DNA of 64,000 nt. Origin: Escherichia phage KKP 3954. The notes under the pieces were generated by a model, which was not told the DNA's origin, searched no databases, and worked only from the letters and a program-made list of their open reading frames with translations. Numbering within the stretch: the stretch's first letter is position 1; each line of letters starts with the position of its first letter. The stretch lies in the sequence record OR067838.1, one strand, 5' to 3'. Position numbers and translations under genes: made by a program. Of the stretch, positions 3,042 to 63,734 are shown in pieces.

Positions 3042-3428
3042 TTATTCAATATAAATCAAATTATCTTCACCAATGTAAGCCGACACGTTCGGCATAAACT
3101 TAGCTGCATTGGTTAGGCGGTTCGCCGTGTTAGTGGTGTATATTTCAGGGCGATCCCAAAAGCCTACGCCGTGACTGTTACGGGTAAAATGTAAATCATT
3201 CCCGATCTGGTTGGCTGTTGCGCCGTCGCTCATTGCCTCAGAGATAGCGGCAAGATTAGCATTAATAAAGGCTGTTACATCCTGGGCGATCCGTTCGTCC
3301 GCGCTAGGAGAAAAATCATAATCGTCTAAGTTATCAATAAAATTACCTTCATGATCCCTTGCTGATTCAGCAAAAATAAAGGCTTCTTTATAACCGTTGA
3401 TGATTTCAATAATGATTTCTGTTTTCAT
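3042..3428 (-). CDS. Hypothetical early protein
   Basis: ORF track 3042..3446; probable ATG at 3428; overlaps upstream gene by about 22 nt. Confidence 0.5.
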   Translation of the reverse strand: MKTEIIIEIINGYKEAFIFAESARDHEGNFIDNLDDYDFSPSADERIAQDVTAFINANLAAISEAMSDGATANQIGNDLHFTRNSHGVGFWDRPEIYTTNTANRLTNAAKFMPNVSAYIGEDNLIYIE

Positions 3429-3642
3429 GCTGTATACGCTCGACAATAATAATAGTTTGCGGGATCTCGTTTTCTACTACTAACAAGGCTTTTTTCTGTG
3501 TGATAGATATTTTAACACGTTGTAAAGTAGCGGTAAAATCTTTCATTTCATTATGCGCGGATTTAGTACAATGCCAGATCTCAGGTTTACCAACTTGCAA
3601 GCCGCGTAAAAATTCCGTTTTACCTGTCTTATTCGTGATCAT
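3406..3642 (-). CDS. Hypothetical early protein
   Basis: ORF track 3406..3651; ATG at 3642. Confidence 0.5.
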   Translation of the reverse strand: MITNKTGKTEFLRGLQVGKPEIWHCTKSAHNEMKDFTATLQRVKISITQKKALLVVENEIPQTIIIVERIQHENRNHY

Positions 3643-6760: not shown

Positions 6761-6850
6761 GGTCTTTCTCTCTTTTTGAGCGGGAACTATTCCCGCCCTA
6801 CGTGTAACAGTTTACTAAAAATTAAATCCGTGTCAAGCCTTATTTTGTTA

Positions 6851-7063
6851 CTACCATTTGGTATACCCTGTCTCAATGTTAGTAAACACTGTTATCCCGT
6901 CCTGGCGTTCACTCATTAACATACAAGGCGCTAACATCCTTTCTACTGCCTTGCACTCATTATAAGCGGCGGTGATGTCTCCTGCTGCCTTGTCTTCTGT
7001 GGTGAATGTATCGTTTACGTAAACCTGACCAGCAACAACGGCGACAATAGCAAAAGTAATCAT
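6851..7063 (-). CDS. Hypothetical early protein (hydrophobic N-terminus)
   Basis: ORF track; ATG 7063; promoter with -10 inside the hairpin loop at 7085-7135. Confidence 0.55.
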   Translation of the reverse strand: MITFAIVAVVAGQVYVNDTFTTEDKAAGDITAAYNECKAVERMLAPCMLMSERQDGITVFTNIETGYTKW

Positions 7064-8803: not shown

Positions 8804-9166
8804 TTATTCGTAAATTTTACCGCTTTCGGCCCATACCATAACGCGGCGCATACTATCCCAAGTGTTTTGATCCAGGTTTAAGCCGTGCAACTCTTCGGTA
8901 CTTCCCAGACCAGGTACCGCCTTGTTGTAAGTTGCATATAAGCGCCCTTGATACTCATATGCCAGGGTGAGATCCGTTTGAATCATCTTTTTAAGCATAG
9001 CATTAAGCATCATATTAGCGGCATGTTGATCACGTTTTAGCGGTAACATATCAATAAGGGCGCGATAAGCTGAAACATGAATATCAACCGTTTCACGTGG
9101 TAAATTTTTCATATCATCGCGGAAAGATACCAGATTAAACATGATAGTATTGATTTGCTTGCTCAT
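8804..9166 (-). CDS. Hypothetical early protein
   Basis: ORF track; ATG start; leader hairpin at 9188-9209. Confidence 0.55.
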   Translation of the reverse strand: MSKQINTIMFNLVSFRDDMKNLPRETVDIHVSAYRALIDMLPLKRDQHAANMMLNAMLKKMIQTDLTLAYEYQGRLYATYNKAVPGLGSTEELHGLNLDQNTWDSMRRVMVWAESGKIYE

Positions 9167-9220
9167 TGTGTTACCCTTTTTTGTTTTGGCGGGGAAGTAT
9201 TCCGCCGCCCTATGTGATAC

Positions 9221-9248
9221 ATCTTATCAGATTAAAAAACGTTGTCAA
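9221..9248 (-). promoter_or_regulatory. Early promoter of the conserved family (TTGACA, 16 nt spacer, TAAGAT)
   Basis: Hexamers on minus strand, followed by stem-loop 9188-9209 and SD+ATG of gene 8804..9166. Confidence 0.55.
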
Positions 9249-9256
9249 GAATATTT

Positions 9257-9352
9257 TTAGAAAATAATAACCGCTACTACAATCCAAAATGGAACGGCTA
9301 GAATGATACCGTTAATCGTTCCAACCGTCAAGCTATTTTCTTTATTAATCAT
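9257..9352 (-). CDS. Hydrophobic micro-protein (31 aa)
   Basis: Not in ORF track; SD AAGAGG then ATG 9352; translation MINKENSLTVGTINGIILAVPFWIVVAVIIF. Confidence 0.35.
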   Translation of the reverse strand: MINKENSLTVGTINGIILAVPFWIVVAVIIF

Positions 9353-9434
9353 TGTAAGCCTCTTGTATAATTTCACTATGAGCGGCACCATTGCCGCCCT
9401 ACGTGGTAAATATTATGCTAGTGGCGGCGATATG

Positions 9435-10254
9435 TCAAAGACTATTTTCAAAGTTTTCTAGGGCGATCCTTTTTTCTTCCTCTGTCGGCTGATAATCAGG
9501 AAAAGCATCAACACACAACAACGGCGGGATCTCTTCATACTCTTCCTCTTCCGTTGTCTCCTCGTCTTCCTCCTGGGCTATGGCTGCAATTTTGGCTAAT
9601 TTTCTCTCCGCTTGAATCAGTTTACCATCAAATACGTTTTTTGCCATGTTGTAAGCGGTCCAGGTGATGCGCTTACTTTCTAGTGCTTCATCAAGCGCCG
9701 CTATCTTGCTGGGGTATTCATCCAGGACACGAAAAGCCGGATCAACTTTGTATACAAGGGATTATCTTTCGCACCGTCGCTCGCATCTTCCGCACTGGAT
9801 AAATCAGCGTTACCATTTGCCAGCCAACCAGGGCGCACATAACGCGCTTTTACGTTGCCGTTACTACGTGCTAATCTGTTACCTATTTGCTCCCCGCTAT
9901 AGCCCGTGGATTCATCGACAAGATAATCAGGAATGATGCGCGGATCATCTGCTTCATGTTTTACCCAAGACTGGATCACATATTCGCGGCCCATATTAAC
10001 CACCTTTTTTTCAACAATCGGCATACTTTAAAAAGACTTGCTGAATCCTTGCAAGGGTAGAAAGATGTACGATAGTCACGTACGCCAACCTTGCGGATCT
10101 CGATGTTCTCGCATGTTGTTTGATCAAAAATATTTATTTCATCACGCCCCCTTATATAAACATAATGGGGATGTATTAACGCATACTTTGCTAATCTGTA
10201 AAAAGCGTTATCCTTGAACGCGATCACGTGACCTTTTAATTTGATGTAAAACAT
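9435..10254 (-). CDS. Hypothetical early protein with acidic C-terminal domain; one gene split into three track ORFs (9976..10254, 9701..10024, 9435..9647) by two apparent 1-nt deletions (T7 run 10005-10011; GTATAC 9750-9755)
   Basis: Only the first ORF has promoter, leader and SD (ATG 10254); the internal ATGs lack an SD; reading continues without stops after a -1 shift at each junction; C-terminus is Glu/Asp-rich. Confidence 0.5.
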
Positions 10255-10330
10255 TCTACCACCTTACAAATAGCGGGAACTATTCCCGCTTTATGTAACA
10301 TATTAACAAATTATTCGTTAATGTCAAGCC

Positions 10331-10603
10331 TTAAAGCAAAAACGCTACATCTTGCGCTTTTAGTGTAGTATCAACCATTTTTGGGCTTTTATAATCAACA
10401 AAACGCGCGGTTTTTTCAATAGCAAAACCGAGATAATCTTGTTTATTGAATTTACATTCTTTCTTAAATGTTTCCCGCGCCACGGTGATCGCTGCGTCCA
10501 GGGATAAACGCCCGTCAATGTTGATATTTGCGAAAGATCCGCCACCGCTCATAGGTTTACCAGTGGTGCCAGCTACGATCATTGTTGCGCTATATGATGC
10601 CAT
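10331..10603 (-). CDS. Hypothetical early protein
   Basis: ORF track 10331..10663 starts inside the leader hairpin; start moved to ATG 10603. Confidence 0.5.
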   Translation of the reverse strand: MASYSATMIVAGTTGKPMSGGGSFANINIDGRLSLDAAITVARETFKKECKFNKQDYLGFAIEKTARFVDYKSPKMVDTTLKAQDVAFLL

Positions 10604-10626
10604 GATTATAATCTCTCTTCTGTTGT

Positions 10627-10650
10627 GAGCGGCTGGACCATTCCGCCGCC
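10627..10650 (-). other. Conserved GC stem-loop in the 5-prime leader of early transcripts (example copy; family consensus GGCGGCAATGGTGCCGC with compensatory variants)
   Basis: More than 20 copies between promoter -10 and SD; stem changes are compensatory (e.g. CGGGAACTATTCCCG, CGGGAAACCATTTCCCG). Confidence 0.6.
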
Positions 10651-10661
10651 CTATGTGATAC

Positions 10662-10689
10662 ATCTTATCAGGTTGTTGGTTGTTGTCAA
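10662..10689 (-). promoter_or_regulatory. Early promoter of the conserved family (TTGACA, 16 nt spacer, TAAGAT)
   Basis: Hexamers on minus strand upstream of leader hairpin 10627-10650. Confidence 0.55.
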
Positions 10690-10695
10690 TACTTT

Positions 10696-10893
10696 TTATT
10701 CTATTCCTGCAATCTGATTAACGCGTTTGCATTTTGTAGCGTGCTGGTCTTCTGTAATTACTCCCATTTCTAACAGTGAATCAATGAAAGATAAAACCGT
10801 TTCATGATCATCCTGGGGATGACTGAACTCAGTAAAACCGTTTACTACCACGTTTATTTGTCCAGCTTTCGCCACAATGTGCAATGTTGCCAT
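10696..10893 (-). CDS. Hypothetical early protein (about 65 aa)
   Basis: ORF track 10696..10983; start moved to ATG 10893 after the leader hairpin; SD GGAG. Confidence 0.5.
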   Translation of the reverse strand: MATLHIVAKAGQINVVVNGFTEFSHPQDDHETVLSFIDSLLEMGVITEDQHATKCKRVNQIAGIE

Positions 10894-12096: not shown

Positions 12097-12151
12097 TATT
12101 TCTGTGCTACAAAGTGGCACCTTTGTTCTAAAAATGAAAAAAGTTAAAATA

Positions 12152-12694
12152 TCACAAATATCGTCTTTGCGGTATTTTGTCTGGGAAAAGTATTTCGATC
12201 AGTTTATTATGATATTTGCCTAAAAGATTCTGCCCTTTCCAAGTGGCAGGGTTGAGCACCCCTGGTTCATACATCCCCATTCCAATTCCGTAAACCTTAT
12301 CGTAGGGGCTTGCTTCAACAAACGTTTTGTATTGGTAAAGGTGCAAGTCTGCATACAAATCTGGATTCTGTATATATTTCAAGCATAAACCTCGCATAAC
12401 AATACGCTCACGGTTCTCTTCCCACACGTTGTTATCAAAATCCGACACTGCCCTACCCATACGTTTGTAATAAGCTTGTTTCCTCTCGTTGTCACGTATA
12501 GTCGAGTGATCAAGGATAGCTGCTGCAATCGCATGATCCTTGAACAGCAAAGCCTTACGCCACATCATGTATTGCTCAACACAACAGAAAGTCTCATTGT
12601 AACCTGGTTCGGTTTCTGTAAAGGGTGCAATATACCAATTACTAAAAACATCTTTATGTGAAAAGAAGAATACATATTCGTCAGTTATTCTCAT
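12152..12694 (-). CDS. NADAR-domain (YbiA-like, DUF1768) protein; candidate ADP-ribose-processing enzyme
   Basis: 180 aa; FFF..FSNW..PF, EQ..M..KA.LF and NP.L motifs typical of the YbiA/NADAR fold. Confidence 0.6.
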   Translation of the reverse strand: MRITDEYVFFFSHKDVFSNWYIAPFTETEPGYNETFCCVEQYMMWRKALLFKDHAIAAAILDHSTIRDNERKQAYYKRMGRAVSDFDNNVWEENRERIVMRGLCLKYIQNPDLYADLHLYQYKTFVEASPYDKVYGIGMGMYEPGVLNPATWKGQNLLGKYHNKLIEILFPDKIPQRRYL

Positions 12695-12870
12695 TTTTTC
12701 ATACCTTCTAAGACTTTAGCTTGCCCGTCTTGAAAAGCTTTCATCAGAACTATCTTAAGATTGACTTCCAAACGTTCTTCATCCTCTTTATAACAATCCA
12801 ACACTGCTTTAAGTTCATCATAGTGGTTCAGAATAGGTTTAAAGATTTCATGATCTGCTAAACGTGCCAT
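12691..12870 (-). CDS. Hypothetical protein (about 59 aa)
   Basis: ORF track 12691..12906; start moved to ATG 12870 with SD AAGGAG. Confidence 0.5.
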   Translation of the reverse strand: MARLADHEIFKPILNHYDELKAVLDCYKEDEERLEVNLKIVLMKAFQDGQAKVLEGMKK

Positions 12871-14311: not shown

Positions 14312-15453
14312 TTAGAACACGCTACCCAGTGTGGTGGAACGTTGTGTTACAGGCTCCAGCACCACTCGCAGAGTGTTACCTGGTGTAGTGCTCGTCACCA
14401 GAATCTTACCACCTTCAATCAGATCACAAGTTAGACCATCACCCGTTGCACATAGATCAATATGTGGATCACCATCTTCGTCCAGGATAACATAACTGTT
14501 GGTTTCCATTGCTTCCACTTCATCATCTTTCAAACTTTGTAGATAGATGTTCAGGGAACAAGCGCCCGACAAAAACTTAGTAGGGGTGAAGTCGTGCCAG
14601 TTATTGATCCAATTCACCTTCAAGGTTTTGCCATTAGCTACGATAGAAGCCACATTCCATTTAGCATCGTTCCCTAAAGAAATACCCATCATTTCAAGAC
14701 ATTCTTTAAAAGTCATTTTTGGATAGAAATTCAATTCTTCTACAATGCCTTGAATAACATCGAAAGACAACTCTGTGCTAACATCCCATAAACGTTGGAA
14801 GTTATCTACGTGCTTTTTATTTACCAAGTTCTTATCCAAGTAATCTAACATAGTTTCACTAGACAGTTTATCGTAATTGAAACTGTAGTAGATACGACTA
14901 GGACGGTTTACAAAATATTCCGAGATATAGCCACTATTTTTAGTGAGGATGTAAAGTTTATTTCCACTTCCTGTTCCATCCAACAAGGTCAACAGTGCTT
15001 CCTGATCTTCTTTCTTAGCGTATACACTTTATCAAACTCGTCAAATAAAACAACAGCACGATCTGTAATTTTACTCATAAATTCTAAGAATCCAGCATCT
15101 GTGTAAGGCTGTGTCACCAAAATGGTTGGAATACCTAAACCTTCTGTGGACATTAGGGACATGCTAATCAGTTTAGCTAACATCGTCTTACCACTGCCCT
15201 TTGTCCCTGTCAGTAACACCCCAGTATTTTTACCTTCTTTACTACGACGAGCAAATGTTTTAATAACATGTGCGGCGCGGTCTTTAGTTTCCCCATAAAG
15301 AGTGTTCGGAAGAGAGAAACTTTCGCCACGCACTAAAGAGTAGTTACCGTGCGGATCGCAGTTGACAACCCAAACTCCAGCAGGAAGTTTATTAGCTTCA
15401 ACACCATATTCCTTATTTACAACAGCCACATCTCCAAAAATAGTGTATTTCAT
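14312..15453 (-). CDS. P-loop NTPase (AAA-type ATPase); split into track ORFs 14989..15507 and 14312..14992 by an apparent 1-nt deletion at GTATAC 15020-15025
   Basis: Walker A GTKGSGKT and Walker B VVLFDEFD; start at ATG 15453 with SD AAGGAG; downstream ORF begins on TTG without an SD and continues in the -1 frame. Confidence 0.55.
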
Positions 15454-15478
15454 TAAAACGTTTCTCCTTTTAAAATAA

Positions 15479-15811
15479 TTACTGTAAACTTTGCAGTTTT
15501 TTCTCACTCTTAATATTCTTGATTAATAAATACTCTCCTCCAGGTGCATCTTTGTATTGTTTAATAGCTACTATTTCATTTTTGCAAGTAGCTATAATCG
15601 AATAAAAAGGACGTTCCGTGTTATCTTCTTTTCCTGTATATGCCTCAACATCTTTGCACTCTTCTAGAACACCATTCCCAGGTGTATAGTAAAACTTGTT
15701 GCCTGTGATCACAACATCTTTACCAATATCCGTTTTAACTGCTACAAATTTTTGAGCGTAAGTGGTGAAGCTTACGGTAGCCAGCAATGTGGCTAAGATT
15801 AATTTTTTCAT
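15479..15811 (-). CDS. Small secreted protein (signal peptide)
   Basis: ORF track 15479..15841; ATG 15811; N-terminus MKKLILATLLATVSFTTYA. Confidence 0.55.
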   Translation of the reverse strand: MKKLILATLLATVSFTTYAQKFVAVKTDIGKDVVITGNKFYYTPGNGVLEECKDVEAYTGKEDNTERPFYSIIATCKNEIVAIKQYKDAPGGEYLLIKNIKSEKKLQSLQ

Positions 15812-19873: not shown

Positions 19874-20076
19874 ATGTTAGTCAGTGAAATACTACCTGAC
19901 TCTAATGGTAATCAGATCACTGTTGATTGGTTTCCTGGTATTAATGGTATACACTAGATCTAACTGCTGAATGGTCTGGTGATATTTATGGAGAAGGTGT
20001 ATTATCATTGTCTACAGAACAAATGATCATCCTTCGTGACTTCTTAATTAGTTTAGATCTAGGAGAAAACAAATGA
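19874..20076 (+). CDS. Small hypothetical protein, apparently interrupted by a 1-nt deletion at GTATAC 19947-19952
   Basis: ATG 19874 with SD AGGAGAG; frame stops at 19955 while the -1 frame runs to a TGA overlapping the next ATG; break window 19945-19954. Confidence 0.4.
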
Positions 20077-30304: not shown

Positions 30305-30961
30305 ATGACAATAAAACATATCTCTTTTGATGTATGGAATACTCTTATTTCTGCCAATCAAAACTATGCAGATGCACGTACGCACACTATTGCCACATAT
30401 GGTAGAATGTCTGAACGTGCCGCAAAAGAAGCATATAAAGATGCCAAAGAAATTATGGATAATGCTGCACTAAATGGGTGTGCAGAAGGTGTAGCATATG
30501 CATGGAATATGTTGGGAAGAAAGATAGGTTTAACCCCTGTAGAATCTGCACAAATGCGTTTTGAGTGTGAGCAATGGTTTCTTAAATTTCCTCCACATAT
30601 TGCTTTAGATTTGCCAGTTTGTTTGCTATACTTGTCTGGTAAATATGATCTTAGTATTAAAAGCAATACTAATTTTATATCTGGGGATATTTTGCGTCGT
30701 GCTTGCATGTTTGATAGTTGGAATTGTTTTGAATTTATGCATTTTTCAGACGAACATTTGTTGTGTAAACCAGATCCTAGATTCTTTGTTAGGACCGCAA
30801 CATATTCAAGCATTCCTTTGAAGGCTGAAGAGATTTTACATGTTGGGGACAGCGAAGAATTTGATGGAAAATGTGTTGACATAGGGATTAACTTCTGTCA
30901 TATTAAGAACCCTAACGACTTACTAGAGAAACTTAAAAGAGGAGAAATTGTAAATGCGTAA
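30305..30961 (+). CDS. HAD-superfamily hydrolase-like protein
   Basis: N-terminal ISFDVWNTL (HAD motif I variant) and later HVGDS; ORF track 30284..30961 trimmed to ATG 30305. Confidence 0.45.
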   Translation: MTIKHISFDVWNTLISANQNYADARTHTIATYGRMSERAAKEAYKDAKEIMDNAALNGCAEGVAYAWNMLGRKIGLTPVESAQMRFECEQWFLKFPPHIALDLPVCLLYLSGKYDLSIKSNTNFISGDILRRACMFDSWNCFEFMHFSDEHLLCKPDPRFFVRTATYSSIPLKAEEILHVGDSEEFDGKCVDIGINFCHIKNPNDLLEKLKRGEIVNA

Positions 30962-30990
30962 TCAAACTCAAATTTTTGCAAATAAATTTG

Positions 30991-31782
30991 ATGACACTGG
31001 AAACTGCTACTTTTGATATCAAAGATTATTCAAAATTGAAATTTGGTAGTAACCAAGCTGCGCGTCGTATGGGTAAAGAATTGGCACTTCAGTTTTTTGC
31101 TCAAGTGGCAATGAAACATATTGGGGAACAATTTGTTATCATTCCTTCTCCTTATAACCATGTGCATAATGCTGCAACAATGATGACAGATCATTTTATT
31201 AATTACTTTAATATGTTGCAAGCACAATATGATCAAGGTCGTTCAGCAGAACTGGATATTATTCATCGTAAAGTTAGCTATATCAACGATTATGGTTTCT
31301 TGGATAAAGCTAGTCGTAAGAAACTTATTGATGGGGATACATTCTACTGCAACAAAGAATTCTGGGGTGATAAGAAGCTTGTGTTCATTGATGATGTAAA
31401 TATCACTGGAACTCATGAAGACAAACTAATTGAGATTCTTGATGAAAATCAAGTTAAAAATGATGTTTACTTCTTGTATTTTGCAAAATATGAAGGTAAT
31501 CAAGCAGATACCGAAGCTAAGCTGAATTTTAACTATATTAATACACCAGAAGCGTTTGTTAAAATGATTAATGAAGAACGTGATGCACAGTGTCTTGTTC
31601 GTCCTATTAAGTATCTTATGGGCCAAAATCATGAAGACTTCAAAATCATTCTTAGCCAATTGCCACACTACTATGTGGAACAACTTTTCTTCGGCTGTTT
31701 AGCTGAAGGCTACAATCGAATTGCAAAGTATGCTGAAAACTTTGAGTTCTTGGATCGCTACACAAAACAACATATTCTGTAA
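30991..31782 (+). CDS. Phosphoribosyltransferase (PRTase type I)-like protein
   Basis: PRPP-binding motif KKLVFIDDVNITGTHEDKL; start ATG 30991 or TTG 30976. Confidence 0.5.
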   Translation: MTLETATFDIKDYSKLKFGSNQAARRMGKELALQFFAQVAMKHIGEQFVIIPSPYNHVHNAATMMTDHFINYFNMLQAQYDQGRSAELDIIHRKVSYINDYGFLDKASRKKLIDGDTFYCNKEFWGDKKLVFIDDVNITGTHEDKLIEILDENQVKNDVYFLYFAKYEGNQADTEAKLNFNYINTPEAFVKMINEERDAQCLVRPIKYLMGQNHEDFKIILSQLPHYYVEQLFFGCLAEGYNRIAKYAENFEFLDRYTKQHIL

Positions 31783-38282: not shown

Positions 38283-39079
38283 ATGTCCGAGAAAATCAGC
38301 CTGAAAAAACGTCAAGAAAACCTTGCTTTCTCTCTGAAAAAGAATAAGAACCTGAACGAAGGTAAGATTGTTCTTCGTGTAGCATGTGCTCTAGATATTT
38401 CTGGTAGTATGCATGGTCTATATACTCGTGGGGTAGTGAGTGATTTTGTAGGTAAACTGCTTCCTTTTGGTATGCTGTTCGACGATAATGAACAAATTGA
38501 CATGTGGGCCTTCAATACGAGTTCTCAAGAGCTTACTCCAGCAACAGCAGACGTTTACGATGACTACGTTGGTAAATGTATGCGTAATGTTCGTATCGGA
38601 GGTGGAACAAATTACGCCCCTGTAATGGCAGATATCTACGATGAGTATTTTGGCACTGTTACCAAATATGTTACCACTAAACAAGTGGTATACAAGAGGA
38701 GGCTCCAAAGAAAGGCTTCTTTAATCGTCTGCTTGGTAAAACTGAAACAGTATCGGTAGAGCGTGAAAAAGTTGTAGCTGTATCTGAACCAGGTGCTGAT
38801 GTTACTCCTGGCGTTGTATTCTTCCAGACAGACGGTGAGAATGGTGATCCTAGTGCTGTTCGTCGTCTTATTGAAGAGAATAAGAATAAGCCTATCTATT
38901 GGTTCATGGTTGGCGTTGGTAATGAGAAGTTCAGCTTCCTGAAAGAACTGGCAAATGCTTATGACAATGTTGGTTTTATTGGCATTAAAGATTTAGACTT
39001 GACAGATTCAGAGCTTTATGACAAACTCTTATCTGAAGAGTTCGGAGAGTGGGTTGTTAAAGTAGGTGCTAAAAAATGA
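38283..39079 (+). CDS. von Willebrand factor A (vWA) domain protein, TerY-like; split by an apparent 1-nt deletion at GTATAC 38688-38693
   Basis: MIDAS motif DISGSM in the N-terminal part (track ORF 38283..38759); vWA C-terminal half (VVFFQTDGENGD...WFMVGVGNEKF) continues in the -1 frame to a stop at 39077-39079. Confidence 0.6.
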
Positions 39080-53280: not shown

Positions 53281-55956
53281 TTAGTCGTAATATTTCAAAC
53301 CTGTAATGAACTTCGATCCCCAATCCGCACTTGCGGCGGTGAACGTCAACATCCAAGTTGTAGCTGTACCAGTGAAGACCTCTCGTTGCACAATACCATC
53401 AGTGTGGTAAATGTCCACGCCAGTATGTCCATTCTTAGGAATAGTGAAGGTAACAGCACTGGTAGTGTCTCGTGCATAAGAACAAACAAATGGTGTCCCC
53501 GCCCAAACTGGATTTGTCATATCCCCCATCTCAAGCTGTGGAACCCAAGCAATAAGACCTGCCATACCATCTCCTGCGAAAGTGTCTGATCCACTTGCAT
53601 TCAAAGCTATAATCTCATAGGTTATAGATGCTTGTTTGGCAACTGTCACTTTGTGTAGAATTACACGATACCAACCATTCCCCATATCGATTATGTTTGC
53701 ATCTGCACCTGTAAATGTTCCAGCTACAAGATCATAAGTCCCTTCGTTAATCTCATCTCCTGAAGTCAATTTGAGTTTCACTTTAGTGATCCCATCTGGC
53801 TTCAAGAATACGGATGCCGCCCAGTGCTTACCTGCTGTAATATCAGAAGCTGTATTCACTGCTGATAAAATATGTTGTCCTGAAGTTGTAGAAGGTGTTA
53901 ACTTGTAAGTGTTAGCCGTAGTTCCAACCGGAGAGTTGATTGTTGATGCTGTGACTGTCAAGTTCGTCTTCAACCACGGGGAAGCTGTTGTCAAGTTATT
54001 GTTGATAAAGATATGTATACGGTTGGCTGCTACAACACGTCTACCTTGTGGAGTTGTACCAACATATTCTAAAGGTGCTACGGGAGCAGAACTCTCTGTA
54101 GGTACAAGGATATCTCCAGAAGCCCTGGCATAACGGTTACTCCTGTTGACCTTTACATCCGCCGGAATAGTTTCTTGCGTCAAATCATAGTCCATCACAA
54201 TCACCACAGCATTCACTGCGAGATAAGAACTATCTTCGGCAGTTACCACACCTTGATAAGTTGCTCTACAACCGATACGACAATCCCCATCAGCAACCGC
54301 TGTAATAACGCCTGTAACGGGGTCAACTGTTGCTACCGTAGGATCATTAGAGAAATACTCAACAACCATACCAGGTAAGCTTGCTGCCCCTGTTGGCGTT
54401 ATTTCTGCTACCATTGTTTGTGTTGTTCCTACATCCATCGCAGATAAGCTAGGAGTGTAAACGCTCAATGTTGAAGCATATCCTCCAGAGGTATCTGATA
54501 AAGTTGTTCCTTCAGCGTTTAAGGCTGTCATACCTGCATCAAAACCACCTTCTGCATGGAAAGTCATTAAACCAGTAGATGATATTGTCATGTTTGCAGG
54601 GGCAGAAGAAGTGTATTTAATATTGAAAAGTTTACCTCCTTCTGGGCTAACAGAATGTGTCAACTGTTTAGTTCCACCTACAATACAAATTCCTAAAGAA
54701 TCTGTAGTTAAGCCAGTTGCCAGAACATCACCCGTAATCACGGAGCTTGCTATTGGTGTGAATTTATTATAGTTTAGACCACTATTGAACAGATACGAAG
54801 CTTTCCCATCTTTCCAAATACCGGAATAATACATATCTCCATTATAAACGAAAAAGGTTCCTTGATAACCTAATTGGTTAGTAACATCCATATTCAGCGT
54901 ATGAACGCTTGTGAGCTTGTTTATATCCCAAGAACCCACTCCTTCAGGTTTAACTGGTTTTCCCACTTGGAGTGGATCTCCGCTCGCAGAATCATACCCC
55001 AAACCTAAGTTTGCAGTGTAGTTCTTACCAATAGCCCACAAGGAATTATTGATCCCAACGAAAAAAGAGTGGCGGCTTGGTGGAAACTTCCATGTTGAGA
55101 AACCTGCTGCAAAGGTATCCAGTTTAGTGTAGGTTGTTTCTGTATTAGATCTAACATATAAGTAGTTTACCATACCCGTGCCACCGGAGGTATCTCCTAC
55201 AACTATTGTCTGGGAAACTGTATTGATGTAATCTTTGACATACACTGTTTCAGTAGCGGATATCTTGGCATTGACAAAAGCTGTTGTTGTGTTATTATTA
55301 CCTGCTAAACCTTTACTAGCTCCACAAACACGCAAGGTTCCCACATTGTTGACATAAGAGCATTGGTTGTAACCTGCATCAAAAGCAACTGCTGCACTCG
55401 TTATTTGACGAGGAGTAGAAACTTCGTTAGTAGTACTTGCACCTAAACTGCCTACTGTGTTTTGACCCGATCCATAAAGAACGCCACTATTCATTAACCA
55501 GAGAGTGTTATTATATCCTCCCTTAACCTCTTTAAGATTGGCTAAAGAGATAGTCCCCGTTATTACAGATGGAAAGCTGGTCCAAGTAGTTACACATGCA
55601 TCCATACCACCTGCTGCTATAGATCCTACCAACCCTGCTGTCAATCCTGAATATTGCCATCCCCCACTATTAGTTTTAATAATAAAACAACGATCTGCGG
55701 TAAACACATCCGCTACTACAGTAGAAGCTAAGTAGAAATTATTGAATCGTGCACTACGAGTTCCATCTGCAATCTCACCAAAAAGGTTTGCACCTTGAGT
55801 AAACAATCTACCATCGTTAAGCAAAATTGCTAAACTACTGTTAGAATTACCAGCATTGTCTGGGTAATCTAAAGTGATTACTTTTTTAACAATACCCGCT
55901 GGCAGAGGAACGACACCAGTACTGGTCATAATAGTAAATATTGGAATTGGAAACAT
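53281..55956 (-). CDS. Large tail fiber / receptor-binding protein (891 aa)
   Basis: ORF track; Gly/Thr/Ser/Asn/Val-rich beta-rich composition; tail-gene context; SD GGAGGG; in-frame GTATAC at 54015 with no break. Confidence 0.55.
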   Translation of the reverse strand: MFPIPIFTIMTSTGVVPLPAGIVKKVITLDYPDNAGNSNSSLAILLNDGRLFTQGANLFGEIADGTRSARFNNFYLASTVVADVFTADRCFIIKTNSGGWQYSGLTAGLVGSIAAGGMDACVTTWTSFPSVITGTISLANLKEVKGGYNNTLWLMNSGVLYGSGQNTVGSLGASTTNEVSTPRQITSAAVAFDAGYNQCSYVNNVGTLRVCGASKGLAGNNNTTTAFVNAKISATETVYVKDYINTVSQTIVVGDTSGGTGMVNYLYVRSNTETTYTKLDTFAAGFSTWKFPPSRHSFFVGINNSLWAIGKNYTANLGLGYDSASGDPLQVGKPVKPEGVGSWDINKLTSVHTLNMDVTNQLGYQGTFFVYNGDMYYSGIWKDGKASYLFNSGLNYNKFTPIASSVITGDVLATGLTTDSLGICIVGGTKQLTHSVSPEGGKLFNIKYTSSAPANMTISSTGLMTFHAEGGFDAGMTALNAEGTTLSDTSGGYASTLSVYTPSLSAMDVGTTQTMVAEITPTGAASLPGMVVEYFSNDPTVATVDPVTGVITAVADGDCRIGCRATYQGVVTAEDSSYLAVNAVVIVMDYDLTQETIPADVKVNRSNRYARASGDILVPTESSAPVAPLEYVGTTPQGRRVVAANRIHIFINNNLTTASPWLKTNLTVTASTINSPVGTTANTYKLTPSTTSGQHILSAVNTASDITAGKHWAASVFLKPDGITKVKLKLTSGDEINEGTYDLVAGTFTGADANIIDMGNGWYRVILHKVTVAKQASITYEIIALNASGSDTFAGDGMAGLIAWVPQLEMGDMTNPVWAGTPFVCSYARDTTSAVTFTIPKNGHTGVDIYHTDGIVQREVFTGTATTWMLTFTAASADWGSKFITGLKYYD

Positions 55957-55972
55957 TTAAACCCTCCATAAA

Positions 55973-55997
55973 AAGAAAGCCCCTTTCGGGGCTTCTG
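55973..55997 (-). terminator. Rho-independent terminator/attenuator between the two fiber genes
   Basis: AGAAGCCCCGAAAGGGGCTTTCT hairpin plus T-run on minus strand. Confidence 0.55.
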
Positions 55998-58022
55998 CTA
56001 TCGTGTTACAACAACCATGTCCACGATATCACCCACACCAGGATACGTTAATTGCAAAATTGTTACTGCGTTAGCAGTAGTTGCTATTTCTGTATCATTC
56101 AGTGCTCCATAAGACGCATCTAGTGTAACCGTGTGTCCCGTTGTATCTTGAATCAAATAAATCATTGCTGAAAACGCTTTAGGTTTTGTAGAGCCAGTGA
56201 CACCAGGCCATGCTCCAACTGTCAGAGCGTCAGTTACTGTAACAACATACATATTGGAAGTTCCAGAAGGAGTCCAAGATGCTCCAGAGTTGGTAGTAGT
56301 TGTTTCAAGTTCCATGAAACCTGCTGTAACTCTAGTTGGTGTTATAGCTTCCGTAGGATCTGATCCTGATATTTCGATCCAGTTTCCATCAGAACGACCA
56401 TACGTCAAGCCGTCTTGAGGGGCTTCTGGTATACTAGGAAGAGTTCCTATAAGTGTCCACGTAGAAGAATCTGTTTTCTTAAACACTGCTCCAGTGGTAG
56501 TATTGAAGGCGTAATCATTGATAACACCGTCTCCTGCGACTGGATTAGTTGTTGCTACAAACCACTGTGCGCCGTCCTTACCGTTGGTCCCATCAATACC
56601 GTTGGTTCCGTTTGTTCCAGGATCACCCTTATCTCCTTTATCCCCTTTTTCACCTTTGTCGCCTTTAATACTTCCCATGTCAACAAAAGATGCGGAATTG
56701 GTGTCTTGATCGTAGGTATAGATGTAAAGATTACTAGTGTCTTCAGTTAAGTAGGCATCGCCATAGTTATTGTAAACAGGTAGAGCTTCACTGTTCGGAA
56801 CATGACCTTTAGCTGTAATTGATGTTCCTCCAAGACTACCAACATTCATCCATTCCGTAGCATCTTGAACCCAAACATACAAATCATTATTAATTTTATA
56901 TGCGTCACCTACTTCTCCAGTCGGAGGAAGTTCAGCTTCGCTGTTCAGAACCCCGATAATCTCTAAACCTGATCCTGTTGCACCCACTGGTCCTTGTGGA
57001 CCTAATTCGCCTTGTGGTCCTCGTTCTCCTTGCTCTCCCTTGTCTCCTTTTGGACCTTTAAGCGAGGCAATAAAATCTACTTCTGTCCCTTCATTACCAG
57101 CATCCAGCCAACTTTGATATGCAGATTTCCCTTCATCTCCATCTGTTCCATCTAGACCGTCTTTACCTGCCTCACCTTGTGGACCTTGAGGACCAACAAT
57201 ATTACCCATGTTGACCCAAGCTGTCCCATTGGAGACATAAAGATTACCACTGATAGAATAAGCTTGGCTTACGTTTTCAGAGTTAGGTTGTGGTAAGTTA
57301 CTTGTAGAAGGCAAATCCCCACGATAATCAAAACCATTAGCGTTGACACCAGGTGCACCCTGTGGACCTGTAGGACCAACGTCTCCTTTATCACCTTTTA
57401 TAGAGGCAAGAAAGTCATAAACAGATCCTGTATTACCATCTGCCAACCATACCTCGTAAGCTGATTTCCCTTCTGGTCCAAGAGAAGAAATAAGTTTCCA
57501 AACAGAACCGTCCCAAGCGTAAATCACATCACCTACGATATAACCATCCCCTGCAACGTTACCTGTAGATGGTAGTTCACTAGTGCTTGCTAATGATCCT
57601 TTAATATTAAGTTGAGCACCAGTATCCCCTTTCAAAGAAGCAAGCCATTGTGCTTCTGTTCCAACAAAACCATTATCAAGTGCGATCTGATAAGCCGATT
57701 TACCAGCTTCAGGTATTGCTTCTGACAAATCATCGATCTGTTGTTGCACTGCCGTAAACTTGGCATTGATAATTGCTATATCATCAGCGGTCCCAACACT
57801 TTGCCATGCAAGGGAAGAAATACCACCTGTGGTGGCTGGCGTAGAGTTTGCTGGAACTACTTTAGGAAAAGTTCCTTTCCATTGGTAATAATTCCCTTCT
57901 GCCGCTAACAGCAAAACTTCACGGGAATTACGTAATGTAAAACCTGCCTCAAAGCTGCGACGTTTTCGATAAGTAGCTTCTACCAGATCGGCTATCGCAC
58001 TATTAGGTCTTGTTAAATTCAT
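55998..58022 (-). CDS. Tail fiber protein with collagen-like Gly-X-Y repeat segments
   Basis: ORF track; several Gly-X-Y runs (GDKGDVGPTGPQGAPG; GPQGPQGEAGKDGLDGTDGDEG; GPKGDKGEQGERGPQGELGPQGPVGATG; GDKGEKGDKGDKGDPGTNGTNGIDGTNGKDG). Confidence 0.65.
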   Translation of the reverse strand: MNLTRPNSAIADLVEATYRKRRSFEAGFTLRNSREVLLLAAEGNYYQWKGTFPKVVPANSTPATTGGISSLAWQSVGTADDIAIINAKFTAVQQQIDDLSEAIPEAGKSAYQIALDNGFVGTEAQWLASLKGDTGAQLNIKGSLASTSELPSTGNVAGDGYIVGDVIYAWDGSVWKLISSLGPEGKSAYEVWLADGNTGSVYDFLASIKGDKGDVGPTGPQGAPGVNANGFDYRGDLPSTSNLPQPNSENVSQAYSISGNLYVSNGTAWVNMGNIVGPQGPQGEAGKDGLDGTDGDEGKSAYQSWLDAGNEGTEVDFIASLKGPKGDKGEQGERGPQGELGPQGPVGATGSGLEIIGVLNSEAELPPTGEVGDAYKINNDLYVWVQDATEWMNVGSLGGTSITAKGHVPNSEALPVYNNYGDAYLTEDTSNLYIYTYDQDTNSASFVDMGSIKGDKGEKGDKGDKGDPGTNGTNGIDGTNGKDGAQWFVATTNPVAGDGVINDYAFNTTTGAVFKKTDSSTWTLIGTLPSIPEAPQDGLTYGRSDGNWIEISGSDPTEAITPTRVTAGFMELETTTTNSGASWTPSGTSNMYVVTVTDALTVGAWPGVTGSTKPKAFSAMIYLIQDTTGHTVTLDASYGALNDTEIATTANAVTILQLTYPGVGDIVDMVVVTR

Positions 58023-58083
58023 TTATCTCTCCTATCATTAGACCATTCTATTGGAAGAAGAGGGGGAATCCCCCTCTATTCCA

Positions 58084-61000
58084 TTAGGTTGTTGGCACAT
58101 CTACTACTGGCGTTGGGCGAATAACCGCAGTATTACCTACAGAAACATTACTGGAATCATTAGGTATGGTTTTAATTCTAACTCCAGCACTTGTAGGCGT
58201 TACAATTGGATCTGCAATGTCTATTTTAACTGGGTTAGTCCACGTATCATTATCTTGATAAGGTGCACGAGTAATAACTGTGTCCAAATCTGCTCCACCT
58301 ACGCCAGCACCAGGAATACGGATACGTGTCCCTGCTGACAGAGGGTAATGATACAACCAAGAAGCATTTGTTGCTGTCCCGTTAGGAGTCAAGTTCTGTG
58401 TCAGGAAGGTATCTCCTGCCTGTGTAGCTCGAATACCGAAAGCTGGGATATCTGGAATATATGCCCCACTTGTTGTTACAAGGAAGAACGTATTATCCGC
58501 CTTGACTATCATATCACCTTTGTCAAACTCTTTCCCTGTTGGGAAATGCATTCCATCAATGTTTCGACTAGGATTAGGCTCTAAGTAATAAACTTTGCCC
58601 GTTGTCCCTACAATAGCTCCAATACCACCTGCGATATTGGTATACATATTAGCTTCAACATTACAGTTGACACGATGAATATCCGAGTAACGGCAACGGC
58701 TCCACTGTGGACGACCAGTAACCATCGTCTTGCCATCTGGGTAACAGTTTACGTTAACCATTTCAAGAACAGATTTTTCTCTACGGAAGAATCCATCATA
58801 AAATGTCCCTGGACCAGATTCAGGTTGACCAACACAATCGAAGATATTACAGGTAATGTTAGACATTGAAAGCCAAGAAGCTATACCGAACAACTGCAAT
58901 GCAGCGCAACGAATATTTTCAAAGCTAACTCTGTTTTCATAACCTGGACCAGCGGAAACTCCCGCAAAAACACGCCCAGTTTTGGTGTGAATGTTACGAA
59001 CAGAATAGTTAAAGCATGGATTTGAAGGTCTGCCCTGTGCCGGAACTACCGGATTACCTTCTTCGTCCAGAACTGCGTTAGTTCCCCACTCCAAATAAAT
59101 CATACGGATATTACTTGCAAGTGTGCTACCGTCTGTTTTAGGCTCTCCATAAACACCGTCAATCGTAAAATCTTTACTTCCATACATTACAACTGCGCCA
59201 GTTGCCAAACCTGTCCCAACAGATACAGTCTGGTCTGGATCGCCATGAATGTTTTCGATAGAGATATTACGACCAACTTCTACATGGACAATCTGACGAC
59301 AACGTTTTGCAAAAACGTTACGAATTGTAATATTCTTGCAATATTGATCATCAGGGATTCCGTAACCATATGGTCCTTTACCAGCTACACCGATACCGAT
59401 ACCCCAGTTGGACAGAGGAATAGGAGCGTTAGTCCCATCGATATTAGACAGGTAAATATTCTCAATCACACAACCATCGTCATAATGTTTATTGATGACG
59501 TTCAGTTCTATTGCATCACCTTGCATGTCCATGAAGGTAAGGTTACGGAAGACACCACGTGTTACTGGTTCCCCTGTTCCTTGTTGAAGGATGCCATACA
59601 ACCCGTTTTTAAAAATACAGTTATCAATTTCAAAAATACCTGATATTGGGTTGCCTTGGAATACCAAGCTACCAACTTGACCTGCGCGAGGAGCACCGTC
59701 CCACAAACAATCGAACATGCGCACAGCACCACCCCAATACATAACACGAGAGTTACGGAAAGTTGTGCCTTCTACTGTAGCATTTTGCACACGATAGTCG
59801 CGTTGACCACGGAACACACCCCCACGCAAAGTGATACCTTGAATATCAAAAGAGCTTGTCGTGAAAGTCATATCGCAACCGTAAGCATCGAGAATCTTGC
59901 TTTTCGAAGCTTTTGCTGCTAACAGTGCCGCTTGGAAAGCTGCTTCTGGTGTGGTATATGTTGTTGTGTTGTTAGCAAATTCTGACAAGTAGACAACATC
60001 GAATAAATCGTTGTATGTTCCACCACGAGGGGTTAACAGTCCTTCTGTATTGGTCAGAACCCATGCATTTGGACCTAATCCACCGCTTGTCTCCAATGTA
60101 TCAGAGGCCAAAATACTTTTTGGTAAACTTCCAGCCCAACGATAACGACCAGCACCACGTCCAATCGTCTGATTTTTAGCTGTCAGAGTTACGTTATTAC
60201 CAAAGCTTGTAGGCAAATGAACAAACTGTCCACGTTCAACAGCTAGTGCAGAAAGATCTACAGACCCCCCAGAATAAGTCATTACTCCAGAAACAGACAA
60301 GGATGTTAAAGTTCCTGTGATGTTAGGAGGTAATGTGTAGGAAGACTGTGCTACTGGATCATACAGAGCTTTAATCCCTGTTAACGATTGACCTGCTGTT
60401 GCGTAAGCCACCTCATCATCTAACAAACCATATTTACGAGCAATAGTTTGCAGAGGGACTTTATCCATGCTTTCTGTTAGTTCTTCCGTTTTTGTTTCTA
60501 AACTAACAAGACGGTTCTCTAGATTAGGATCTGTATCTGCTGAAGCTACGATTTTACCAATATAAGCAAAAAGCTTGTTTGGTAGTCCTGTTGCAGGATC
60601 GTGTCCCAAAGGTTCAGATAAGATGATCTTACTATCTTCTATACGGAAAGCTTCTCCCAGAACCTGAATAACACCGTTGATAGTAACAATAGCACTGTCA
60701 AAAATATAAGGAGGACTAATTACTGTTTCATAACCCGTTGCACCAGAATATACCCACGGGGTGACTTCTGTTGCTAATTGTTCTGTTTTCAGTCCCCACA
60801 ATACCCAGTTATTATCCCCTACTGGAGAATACCTTGCATAGGGATTGGGTTTACCAATGTAGCATTAGGAGCATAATAATAACCGCTCAATACCCCATTC
60901 TGGAAATAACGCAGTTGGTTAAAAACCGTTTCATTTGTGCCTTGCGCCCAATCCAATGGACTTTTAAAGAAAAAGTTGTCAACAAGGGCTTTTCTCAGGG

Positions 61001-61139
61001 TTGGTATCAACCCTGATTCTGTTTCAATACTCTCTGTAGCACTTCCATTAATAACATCATGGAGTTGGTTAGACGAGAAAATAACCAGATCTACGCCCTG
61101 TTCAAGAGACGTTGCTGGATATGTTGGGAATGTTGCCAT
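58084..61139 (-). CDS. Tailspike-like protein (probable beta-helix body), annotated as one gene from track ORFs 60819..61139 (106 aa) and 58084..60801 (905 aa)
   Basis: The 106-aa ORF has SD+ATG; the 905-aa ORF begins on TTG with no SD, 17 nt after the TAG and in the -1 frame, which is open back to 60864; composition fits tailspike/depolymerase proteins. Confidence 0.45.
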
Positions 61140-61142
61140 TAA

Positions 61143-61478
61143 TTACCCCTTATTCTGTATACGTTTAACTATGTCATCTAGCATCATTTGAATAGTAGCA
61201 TTCTTGAGGTCCATAATCTTTTCAATCTTTTGCTCAAGAGTGTTATTATTTGCCATTAATGTAGAGTTAATTTGATTTAGCATCTGGGTAAGTTCGGCTT
61301 TAGTTGCATAAGTTGATTCAACAAAGACCAACTTCTTCTCTAGCTCTCGACTTTTCTCCTCCATTTCCTCAAGATCAGAGCCGAATTTATCCATTTTTTG
61401 TTTGAAAAAGAACCAGATGACTCCGATTAAAGGGATGATTGCATCCTTTGCAAGTCCCCATGCTTCTTGAAATTCCAT
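61143..61478 (-). CDS. Small protein with N-terminal TM segment and coiled coil (tail-associated)
   Basis: ORF track; hydrophobic AIIPLIGVIWFFF then heptad-like region. Confidence 0.5.
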   Translation of the reverse strand: MEFQEAWGLAKDAIIPLIGVIWFFFKQKMDKFGSDLEEMEEKSRELEKKLVFVESTYATKAELTQMLNQINSTLMANNNTLEQKIEKIMDLKNATIQMMLDDIVKRIQNKG

Positions 61479-61487
61479 AGTGATCCC

Positions 61488-62033
61488 TTATTCCGTCGGT
61501 AATGTAGGCCAATCTATAGCGTAAGGATAGTTTTTTTGAAGCGGAACACGGTTTAGTTTAACCACATAAACTTGAAGATTTTTAAGATAAGTTAATTCAT
61601 CTTCAGTAGCCATTTCTAAATCTTTAGCATATTGTAAAGGTGTTATAAGTGCTACCGCTGTTTCTTGTAAAGAGCGAATCTTTGCACTAGCTTGTGTCAT
61701 CAACTCTTCACGGGAATACTCTTTATCCTTAAGAGTTAAGGTTTCTAAATCCAAAACCTTGTTCCTAATATCCTCAAAAGTATCTATATTAAAGTCTACT
61801 TGTGCTATAGAAAGATCTTCAGGGCAAAGTAGTGTAGGATCAGTATTCCAAAACACAATACGATTTTGATCATCAAAAACGACTTTCATTTTGTCGTTAT
61901 TGAATTCTGTGCTACGTAAATCATACCAATCGTAACCTTGATCACAACGAAGGAAAAGAATGTTCTCTGCTTCTACCAATTCTTTTAGTTCAGGATCTTC
62001 AGGAATATACTTTTTAAAATTTGTAAATATCAT
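61488..62033 (-). CDS. Hypothetical tail-associated protein
   Basis: ORF track; tail-module context. Confidence 0.5.
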   Translation of the reverse strand: MIFTNFKKYIPEDPELKELVEAENILFLRCDQGYDWYDLRSTEFNNDKMKVVFDDQNRIVFWNTDPTLLCPEDLSIAQVDFNIDTFEDIRNKVLDLETLTLKDKEYSREELMTQASAKIRSLQETAVALITPLQYAKDLEMATEDELTYLKNLQVYVVKLNRVPLQKNYPYAIDWPTLPTE

Positions 62034-63095
62034 TTAGCCTCCAATATCATACCAGTTTCCGTTAACGTTGCGCTGGAGGCGTTTGAAGTAAACCCCACCA
62101 ATGTTATCCGCAGAACTACGACCTGTTTCCTGAACAATAATACCAGAAAGAACATAACCAGAAGAACAGATATAAGTCCAAGAAACTTCGTTCCCTGGTG
62201 GATAATACACACCTTGGCTAGTATAACGAATATCTCTTACAAAGGTTCCATTAGCATAGTTGTAGTTATTTGTAATCTGATTTTGATGATTACTTTCTAC
62301 ATTGTTTATACGGGAAGAGAGGTTGCTGTTAACACTATTCAGGTTGTTTTGAACAGTGTTAATATTCGTCTGCAATGTGTTCTGAAGAGAAGTCAAACGA
62401 GAATTCAGATAATCTAAGCGAACCAAGGCATTTCCGTTAGAAGTGTCTTGTCCATTGTTTGATCTTGGATTATCTATTAGAACATAACCTGCATCATATA
62501 AACGAACACCTGCGGCTACACTACCTGTGCTAGGATTTCTACGATAAATATAAAGCTGACCTCCACTTTGGTATTCGGCAGAAATCTCACCATTAGTCTG
62601 TCCTGCAAAGTTCTTGAAAAACAGGGTTGCAGGATCTGTTGTGGAAATACCATTAACATAAACATCACCACCATAAATAGCACCACCTGCATCACGTTTT
62701 ACCAACACATTTGGTGTTACTATTGAACTAGTAGCATCTGTAATGTTTGCCGATAAGTGATTATGACTGTTGTCTTGAACTTGGATAGATAAAGTAACTT
62801 CTTTATTACCATTCCAAGTAGCTTCACCAGTAGCATCACCTGCCATTGTAATCTTAGTTCCAACTAAAGGCAAGTAAGTATCAGGTAAAGTTGGAAGAAA
62901 GTCATCCACCAAATAGCGAATCCATAAACCGATATTATTAAGAATCCAGTTCATTTCTTCGCAAGTCATGATTTGACCATAATCCATACCAACTGTGCGG
63001 ATGGTTTCTTTAGGTCTAATTTTGTTTGTGTTTAAAGTTCCTGGGAGCGTTACAGTTTGTGTAGCCCAGTCAGGATAATATATTGGCTTCGCCAT
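62034..63095 (-). CDS. Tail fiber / baseplate-associated fiber protein (353 aa)
   Basis: ORF track; Asn/Ser/Thr-rich with coiled-coil segment (LDYLNSRLTSLQNTLQTNINTVQNNL). Confidence 0.55.
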   Translation of the reverse strand: MAKPIYYPDWATQTVTLPGTLNTNKIRPKETIRTVGMDYGQIMTCEEMNWILNNIGLWIRYLVDDFLPTLPDTYLPLVGTKITMAGDATGEATWNGNKEVTLSIQVQDNSHNHLSANITDATSSIVTPNVLVKRDAGGAIYGGDVYVNGISTTDPATLFFKNFAGQTNGEISAEYQSGGQLYIYRRNPSTGSVAAGVRLYDAGYVLIDNPRSNNGQDTSNGNALVRLDYLNSRLTSLQNTLQTNINTVQNNLNSVNSNLSSRINNVESNHQNQITNNYNYANGTFVRDIRYTSQGVYYPPGNEVSWTYICSSGYVLSGIIVQETGRSSADNIGGVYFKRLQRNVNGNWYDIGG

Positions 63096-63104
63096 TTAAA
63101 CTCC

Positions 63105-63734
63105 TTAATCTATTTGCTTGAGAAGCGTATACATGCGTCCTGTTTCATCCCCAGTAGATTCCATGTATAGGGAACCTAAACCACCAATACCATGAGGCGG
63201 TTTGGTAGCATAATAAGAACTAAAACCAAAAGCTGATCCTGCTTTTGCTCCAAGACGGTAGCTACTAATAATAGGGAAAACACTTAGCAACTGTTCTAAA
63301 GCTTGATCAGATTGAAGACACAGGTTGTAGAAAAACACATCAAAGGTTTTATTCAAACCTACGTAAGTATTAAGCGTTTCACGCTCTGTTCCTGTGAAAC
63401 GGGCGAAGATATCAATTATGTCACCACGAGTCCCCGATGAGGCTACGCGGTAAGCCCTGATTTTTAATATTGTTCTATACTCTTCATCATCAGAGCCATT
63501 ACGTTCGATCCCCATTTCTTCTCCTAAGATATCTAGGTATTTGCCTGTGGCTGTGGAGATCAAGCGGTGTTTAGCAAGATAGATCATTGCCTGATCTATC
63601 TTTTGCTTTTCACTGGATACGATGTAGAGGAGCTTGACAATGTTAGGAGAAGATTTAAAATCTTCAATCAGAAGGTTTTTAACGTCTTCATTGATACTGG
63701 CCCAAGTTGTTACATGGTCAACACTCACTGCCAT
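63105..63734 (-). CDS. Tail/baseplate structural protein (hypothetical)
   Basis: ORF track; tail-module context. Confidence 0.5.
   Translation of the reverse strand: MAVSVDHVTTWASINEDVKNLLIEDFKSSPNIVKLLYIVSSEKQKIDQAMIYLAKHRLISTATGKYLDILGEEMGIERNGSDDEEYRTILKIRAYRVASSGTRGDIIDIFARFTGTERETLNTYVGLNKTFDVFFYNLCLQSDQALEQLLSVFPIISSYRLGAKAGSAFGFSSYYATKPPHGIGGLGSLYMESTGDETGRMYTLLKQID

Follow-up and report, generated by a model that had tools for sequence, protein, structure and literature searches.

The locus at positions 9435 to 10254 of the window (the whole stretch of 64,000 nucleotides of Escherichia phage KKP 3954 analysed here, record OR067838.1) is a conserved pair of hypothetical genes, already annotated in relatives, that two indels break into three open reading frames in the sequence as written. 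Both indels are probably artefacts of base calling or consensus building, one at a presumably modified GTAC motif and the other at a homopolymer, with the phage genes themselves intact. The phage would then most probably make normal proteins of 85 aa and 185 aa. The correct annotation of the locus is two genes of these lengths, neither three ORFs nor a fusion, and record OR067838.1 needs correction or resequencing.

Two conserved genes are interrupted by two indels

The window belongs to Phapecoctavirus, a phAPEC8-like myovirus with a genome of about 150 kb. The region was matched by 114 phage records, of which 64 span it, mostly at 95-99% identity. More than 40 relatives carry two genes at this locus, neither three nor one. 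In phAPEC8, Schickermooser, ukendt and AV125 these are genes of 258 nt (85 aa; gene A) and 558 nt (185 aa; gene B) with 1 base between them. The corresponding features of the window are the following.

10254..9976, minus strand: ORF1, which is gene A as written, 92 aa (85 aa in relatives)
10024..9701, minus strand: ORF2, a mechanical frame of 107 aa, consisting of a 10-codon spurious N-terminal extension, gene B residues 1-80 and 17 out-of-frame codons
9647..9435, minus strand: ORF3, a mechanical frame of 70 aa, equal to gene B residues 116-185
9435..9994, minus strand: gene B, 560 nt here and out of frame past codon 80 (185 aa in relatives)
10005..10011, minus strand: A7 run (T7 on the plus strand), A6 in every relative
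9750..9755: GTATAC, which is the GTAC of all relatives with an inserted TA; the frameshift separating ORF2 from ORF3
9632..9635: second GTAC site of gene B, reads ATAC; L121F, a residue invariant in the family
9537..9540: third GTAC site of gene B, reads ATAC; synonymous (Tyr)

The initial annotation had read the three frames as one early gene broken at a T7 run and at GTATAC. We confirmed the three minus-strand ORFs with their coordinates and their lengths of 92, 107 and 70 aa, the position of ORF2 in the -1 frame of ORF1 across the A7 run and the open frame of ORF3 upstream to GTATAC at 9750-9755. The breaks lie precisely at the two positions that had been named, both are indels relative to all relatives, and a four-way alignment of the window with relatives over the locus contained exactly these two indels. 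As for the grouping into one gene, ORF2 and ORF3 do belong together, since deletion of the TA restores the 185 aa, while every relative has ORF1 as a gene of its own, 85 aa long.

In the A6 version gene A reads ...AAA AAA GGT GGT TAA, with the TAA at 9998-9996, one base ahead of ATG 9994. In the A7 version the stop lies 7 codons downstream and the protein ends in a 9-codon altered tail, RWLIWAANM. Because of the extra A, ATG 10024 enters the frame of gene B, hence the spurious start of ORF2; the ATG of ORF3 is an internal Met of gene B that is not conserved in the family. The three mechanical ORFs are therefore the result of one additional A in an A6 run and of a TA inside GTAC. When one A was deleted, gene A had 85 aa and was identical to ukendt_59, and when one TA was deleted, gene B became an ORF of 185 aa with 2 residues different from ukendt_60. 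A look-up in public assemblies returned no entry with the exact product of any of the three ORFs of the window. The TA insertion at 9750 was shared by none of 43 phage records. The extra A at 10005-10011 was shared by none of 58 records, all listed rows having 67 bases against the 68 bases of the query. All three GTAC sites of gene B are altered, with one synonymous change, one L121F substitution and one frameshift as the outcome. A two-piece match to ukendt had the appearance of a 500-bp insertion in that genome; what looks inserted there is a junction with a repeated promoter module, not a genuine insertion.

The gene pair is preceded by an early promoter and a leader hairpin

The signals found around the two genes are listed below.

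10300..10327, minus strand: sigma-70-like early promoter of the gene A/gene B unit, TTGACA-16-TAATAT, TG-extended
10272..10290, minus strand: 5' leader hairpin with an 8-bp stem AGCGGGAA/TTCCCGCT and a 3-nt loop (-15.9 kcal/mol, z = -3.5)
10265-10259, minus strand: SD of gene A, AAGGTGG, 4 nt upstream of ATG 10254
10000..10006, minus strand: AAGGTGG, the SD of gene B, 5 nt ahead of the in-frame ATG 9994; it overlaps the last two codons of gene A, both Gly
9410..9438, minus strand: next early promoter, TTGACA-17-TAATAT, overlapping the stop codon of gene B (ORF3)
9399-9380, minus strand: hairpin after the next promoter (-17.7 kcal/mol, z = -3.7)

A promoter is annotated in phAPEC8 at the place equivalent to 10300..10327, and the annotation of Schickermooser treats the equivalent of the leader hairpin at 10272..10290 as a putative terminator. 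The promoter, leader hairpin and SD that had been assigned to ORF1 were all present. The statement that ORF2 begins without an SD did not hold for the gene it represents, as AAGGTGG at 10006-10000 stands 5 nt before the conserved ATG 9994. The overlap of this SD with the terminal Gly codons of gene A suggests translational coupling. The locus is an early two-gene transcription unit, running from the promoter through the leader hairpin to gene A (85 aa, basic) and gene B (185 aa, acidic, starting at ATG 9994).

Promoter-like sites of this kind were frequent: 13 exact matches to TTGACA-N16/17-TAWNAT were counted in the window, against 0.41 expected by chance. They lie on the minus strand between 1697 and 10689 and on the plus strand between 17957 and 63661, eight of them being the minus-strand sites at 1.7-10.7 kb. 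Both promoters that we examined were directly followed by a stable 5'-leader hairpin (z about -3.6). A scan of 9000-10800 against Rfam returned nothing meaningful.

Gene A and gene B belong to separate families

Gene A matched phrog_17947 over its full length (E = 9.4e-52, positions 1-85 of 85), and gene B, with the ukendt orthologue as the query, matched phrog_16605 over its full length (E = 2.5e-112, positions 1-185 of 184). In its family gene A ends in ...KKGG-stop directly before gene B, and the window's copy does so once one A is removed. The start of gene B at ATG 9994, MGREY, was found in all 22 aligned homologues. Family members of gene B have a single uninterrupted ORF; as written in the window the frame is lost after codon 80, an interruption that we judged to be an artefact. 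The break falls in a conserved site of the 22 aligned homologues (NPL..VDPAF), in which P79, L80, D84 and A86 are invariant or nearly so. The homologues of gene B formed 25 clusters of 176-226 aa, and neither the cluster survey nor an exhaustive HMM search contained a homologue longer than 226 aa, fused or of about 270 aa. For gene A only two further homologue clusters were found, a distribution much narrower than that of gene B.

The order of the two genes is kept in distant relatives. At L010 and L011 (a 157-kb metagenomic scaffold and Klebsiella phage 05F01) a gene A homologue of 75-83 aa, with 41% and 31% identity, precedes gene B. In both, gene A ends in Gly-Gly-stop, and the GGAGG of the Gly codons serves gene B as its ribosome-binding site, lying 1-4 nt ahead of the ATG; the junction contains no A-run. 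The conservation of this two-cistron junction rules out both a single 270-aa gene and a conserved programmed frameshift. Small genes matching Pfam PF26851 (Phage_T7_0_6) adjoin the pair in these relatives (L010 1080-1229 and L011 2414-2560), which is consistent with an early, host-takeover neighbourhood. The gene B homologues of the Klebsiella phage 05F01 group (P0020, P0023 and P0024) have an extra C-terminal extension of about 40 aa (columns 190-238 of the homologue alignment) with a hydrophobic segment, LWQSLTSFFITMLP, which may be a membrane anchor.

These family data bear on the proposal of the initial annotation that the locus encodes one early gene of about 270 aa, twice broken, whose product would be an acidic-tailed DNA-mimic anti-restriction protein. 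The lengths of the two proteins do add up to this value (85 + 185 = 270), both break points are real differences from the relatives and gene B is acidic overall, with a pI of 4.4. However, with A6 the TAA of gene A is separated from ATG 9994 by a single base, and the two genes are in different frames; the two-cistron layout is conserved down to 31% identity with no homologue of about 270 aa, gene A has a PHROG and a much narrower distribution of its own, matches to Ocr or ArdA were absent by Pfam, PDB profile and Foldseek, and the acidic residues sit mostly in a variable linker of low pLDDT. We therefore consider a single 270-aa gene very improbable.

A fusion of gene A to gene B by programmed -1 ribosomal frameshifting or by transcriptional slippage on the A-run has even less in its favour and is improbable in the extreme. 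With its following G, the A7 run is similar to slippery sequences, for example the A AAA AAG of dnaX. Against this, the run is A6 in all 58 relatives, in which a -1 shift would yield only a 9-codon tail and no fusion, gene B being in the +1 frame; moreover, the distant homologues have no A-run at the junction and no fused homologues were found.

GTAC sites are altered throughout the window

The window was aligned to ukendt, AV125 and ESCO13, and differences at GTAC and in homopolymers were recorded. The GTAC sites of the relatives were altered in the window in 42 of 68 cases (62%), against 7.8% for all 4-mers and 25% for the next-highest one, so that GTAC was the only strong outlier among all 4-mers for site loss. 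An identical insertion of TA, turning GTAC into GTATAC, occurred at six sites (3432, 6861, 9750, 15020, 19947 and 38688). The changes were mostly outer C-to-T changes giving GTAT or ATAC, with about 33 substitutions (for example those at 53393-63165), and one altered site, at 4134, reads GATTAC. No extended motif around GTAC that divides the altered from the retained sites was evident. The alignment to ukendt, AV125 and ESCO13 also contained many differences in homopolymer length. Since both classes of indel at our locus, the GTAC-specific one and the homopolymer-length one, were found across the window and are typical of a nanopore-only consensus, an artefact is the simplest reading of both.

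The losses of GTAC were independent of the codon frame. Nonsynonymous and synonymous substitutions at these sites stood at 18:15, against a background of 231:793 (p = 9e-5). The nonsynonymous fraction was 55%, somewhat lower than the neutral expectation of 72% (p = 0.03), and some of the changes at GTAC sites may thus be real.

Fourteen genes of the window, all intact in relatives, have a disrupted frame. They include 14312-15453, 58084-61139, 30954-31782, 38283-39079, 19874-20076, 15453-15811, 6840-7063 and 3425-3642. A putative ATPase of 380 aa (14312-15453) is frameshifted by the TA insertion at 15020, a 3-kb gene for a tailspike or colanic-acid-degrading protein has 2 additional nt at 60828, and one broken gene carries a 1-nt insertion within a CCTGG site (30996). 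At about 12150-12695 on the minus strand lies a gene whose AV125 orthologue is annotated as 'Uncharacterized domain COG3236 / GTP cyclohydrolase II' (ukendt_56, VOG0154). Small early ORFs also differ in frame between ukendt and AV125, with a 1-nt frameshift in about 3 of 49 genes, and since these two genomes differ in several such ORFs the count of broken genes is by itself weak evidence. The defect described here for gene B probably extends to other genes of this genome, among them the one at 38283-39079 and that of the putative ATPase (14312-15453).

The same pattern occurs in a nanopore-only assembly

The only other genome in which we found the GTAC pattern was that of phage BI-EHEC (OL505078), which was sequenced by ONT only and assembled using Guppy 4.0.11, Flye and Medaka (PMC8686590). 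GTAC sites were altered in BI-EHEC in 21 of 28 cases relative to ukendt and in 6 of 18 relative to ESCO13, whereas in the control pair of ukendt (Illumina) and AV125 (platform not checked) 3 of 35 and 5 of 37 GTAC sites differed; this contrast of nanopore with short-read data rests on one ONT genome, BI-EHEC.

The two assemblies did not resolve the same site in the same way. At 5174 the window has GTAT and BI-EHEC has ATAC, and at 9750 the window has GTATAC and BI-EHEC again ATAC. Quartet splits outside the GTAC columns were about equal (59, 63 and 70); inside these columns only the split joining the window with BI-EHEC was found (5, 0 and 0), which indicates that the changes shared by the two arose independently and not by common ancestry. 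The changes were thus blind to coding constraints and inconsistent across assemblies, as is characteristic of nanopore consensus errors. Occurrence of the same motif-specific pattern in the nanopore-only BI-EHEC also means that the public record OL505078 is probably affected.

On these grounds we infer that the window, too, was assembled from reads of the nanopore type, and that GTAC in the DNA of the phage bears a chemical modification. A nanopore-only consensus of DNA carrying a GTAC modification absent from the training of the base caller would yield the GTAC miscalls, and the extra A in the A-run would be a homopolymer error.

Real loss of GTAC sites is an unlikely explanation of the breaks

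Relatives that were not sequenced by nanopore also avoid GTAC. It was the most depleted 4-mer in most segments of those compared (observed/expected 0.18-0.52), which points to genuine selection against GTAC in the genus and suggests long-term avoidance of a GTAC-specific nuclease in these phages. Deamination of 5mC was considered as the cause of the depletion and rejected, because the non-nanopore relatives showed enrichment of CTAC and GTAG but none of GTAT and ATAC. In most segments CTAC and GTAG ranked highest of all 4-mers for enrichment (about 1.55). The depletion of GTAC was weaker in the early region, and GGCC, CCGG and CTAG were also avoided in the relatives examined (ukendt, ESCO13) and the window.

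The indels could be real changes in a lineage that is purging GTAC under a GTAC-specific nuclease, gene B then being a true pseudogene and ORF1 having a real extension of 7 aa. Sites would be lost by point mutations and by TA duplications arising from filled-in and religated G^TAC staggered cuts, and dispensable early genes would be sacrificed. Cleavage by enzymes of the Csp6I/CviQI type leaves a TA 5' overhang, and TA is exactly what was inserted. The window also represents a lineage of its own, in which private substitutions outside GTAC amount to about 1.2%, and the nonsynonymous fraction slightly under the neutral one given above points in the same direction. The 1-nt differences in frame in a few small early ORFs of ukendt and AV125 leave room for a real A7 allele.

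Several observations speak against real changes. The outer C-to-T changes dominate at any codon position, also at sites where an inner change would have been synonymous, invariant residues are altered (L121F, for example) and frameshifts occur even in the 380-aa ATPase. A site loss of 62% at 2-3% overall divergence would require dozens of separately selected events. Finally, the sole other genome with the pattern, BI-EHEC, is nanopore-only, resolves some sites differently and is not the closest relative of the window elsewhere. We consider real indels of this origin unlikely, and a consensus artefact is preferred.

A stronger form of this idea is that the lineage of the window and, independently, BI-EHEC are actively erasing GTAC, each TA duplication being the trace of in-vivo repair after a cut at G^TAC; such scars would be tolerated in early genes that the phage can spare, gene B among them. 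If true, the genome would directly document how restriction was escaped through cleavage, fill-in and religation. We regard this as quite unlikely.

GTAC may be modified in Phapecoctavirus

If the breaks are artefacts, the GTAC miscalls in two independent Phapecoctavirus assemblies suggest that GTAC is modified, an indirect lead of wider interest. That the artefacts reveal an undescribed GTAC-specific DNA modification in Phapecoctavirus has, in our estimate, about an even chance of being correct. Our literature search found no report of a GTAC modification in Phapecoctavirus, and in the BASEL study the related Vequintavirinae and phi92-like phages were described as being without effective protection against restriction.

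Relatives encode two putative DNA methyltransferases, assigned to phrog_757 and phrog_799, and located as follows.

L013 21792-22475 and 28893-29402, outside the window: putative methyltransferases ukendt gp139 and gp156

Neither gp139 nor gp156 had a match in Pfam or NCBIfam; gp139 has a weak similarity to the N-terminal part of M.HaeIII (E = 0.08). Both proteins are candidates for the modification of GTAC.

Predicted properties of the two proteins

No Pfam family was found for gene A or gene B at E <= 1, and an NCBIfam-style search with gene B returned nothing. The PDB profile search with gene B gave weak coiled-coil matches only, and Foldseek with the gene B model against BFVD gave unannotated homologues only and no annotated mimic. 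The exhaustive HMM search retrieved 52 relatives of gene B, all of them unannotated small phage proteins encoded in arrays of genes with no function assigned.

In an AlphaFold2 model of gene B (pLDDT 68) the confident part was a helical hairpin at residues 85-149. The most conserved part of the protein, a Gly/Asn-rich N-terminal region, was not confidently folded. Of the 39 acidic residues, 18 fall within residues 141-185, a segment variable in both length and sequence, and the acidic core at residues 146-154 had a pLDDT below 50. Our tentative picture of gene B is of a conserved N-terminal region for interactions, then a helical hairpin and, after it, a flexible acidic linker.

The acidic stretch to which the initial annotation drew attention, EEDEETTEEEEYEE, is present. 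The suggestion of DNA mimicry drawn from it is unsupported: comparisons with Pfam, the PDB and known folds gave nothing that matches Ocr or ArdA, and the stretch is short, poorly conserved and modelled with low confidence. Nor does the model of gene B present a rigid folded surface with an acidic array resembling DNA phosphates. Our best guess is that gene A and gene B are early host-takeover proteins; for gene B this inference comes from its place among closely packed early promoters of the host type.

Comparison with known systems

The closest counterpart of the locus is the pair phAPEC8_00260/ukendt_59 and phAPEC8_00261/ukendt_60, which shares position, promoter, leader hairpin and SD with the window at 97-99% DNA identity. 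The window differs from this pair in having A7 for A6 and GTATAC for GTAC, which makes gene A 7 codons longer and splits gene B.

With Ocr (T7 gp0.3) and ArdA gene B has in common that it is an early gene near a strong host-type promoter and encodes a small acidic protein (pI 4.4), but no similarity in sequence, profile or fold was found. The acidity of gene B sits in a short variable linker, whereas that of Ocr and ArdA is spread over a rigid, DNA-shaped surface, and its conserved part, unlike theirs, is a Gly/Asn-rich N-terminal region with a helical hairpin.

Formally, GTATAC is what cleavage at G^TAC followed by fill-in and blunt ligation would make of GTAC. In contrast to the fill-in scars of staggered cuts, however, most of the altered GTAC sites are substituted and not duplicated, and the pattern recurs in a nanopore-only assembly.

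The classic cases of modification-mediated nanopore errors concern the Dam and Dcm motifs. Motif-specific errors from untrained modifications have been documented in Medaka-polished ONT genomes (Chiou et al. 2023, PMC10687267), and the window shares with these that the discrepancies cluster on one short motif and that homopolymer lengths differ too. As in such errors, the outcome at the same site varies by assembly, and the pattern is absent from ukendt (Illumina) and AV125. The window departs from the reported cases in its motif, GTAC, and in the recurrent 2-nt insertion that occurs besides the substitutions.
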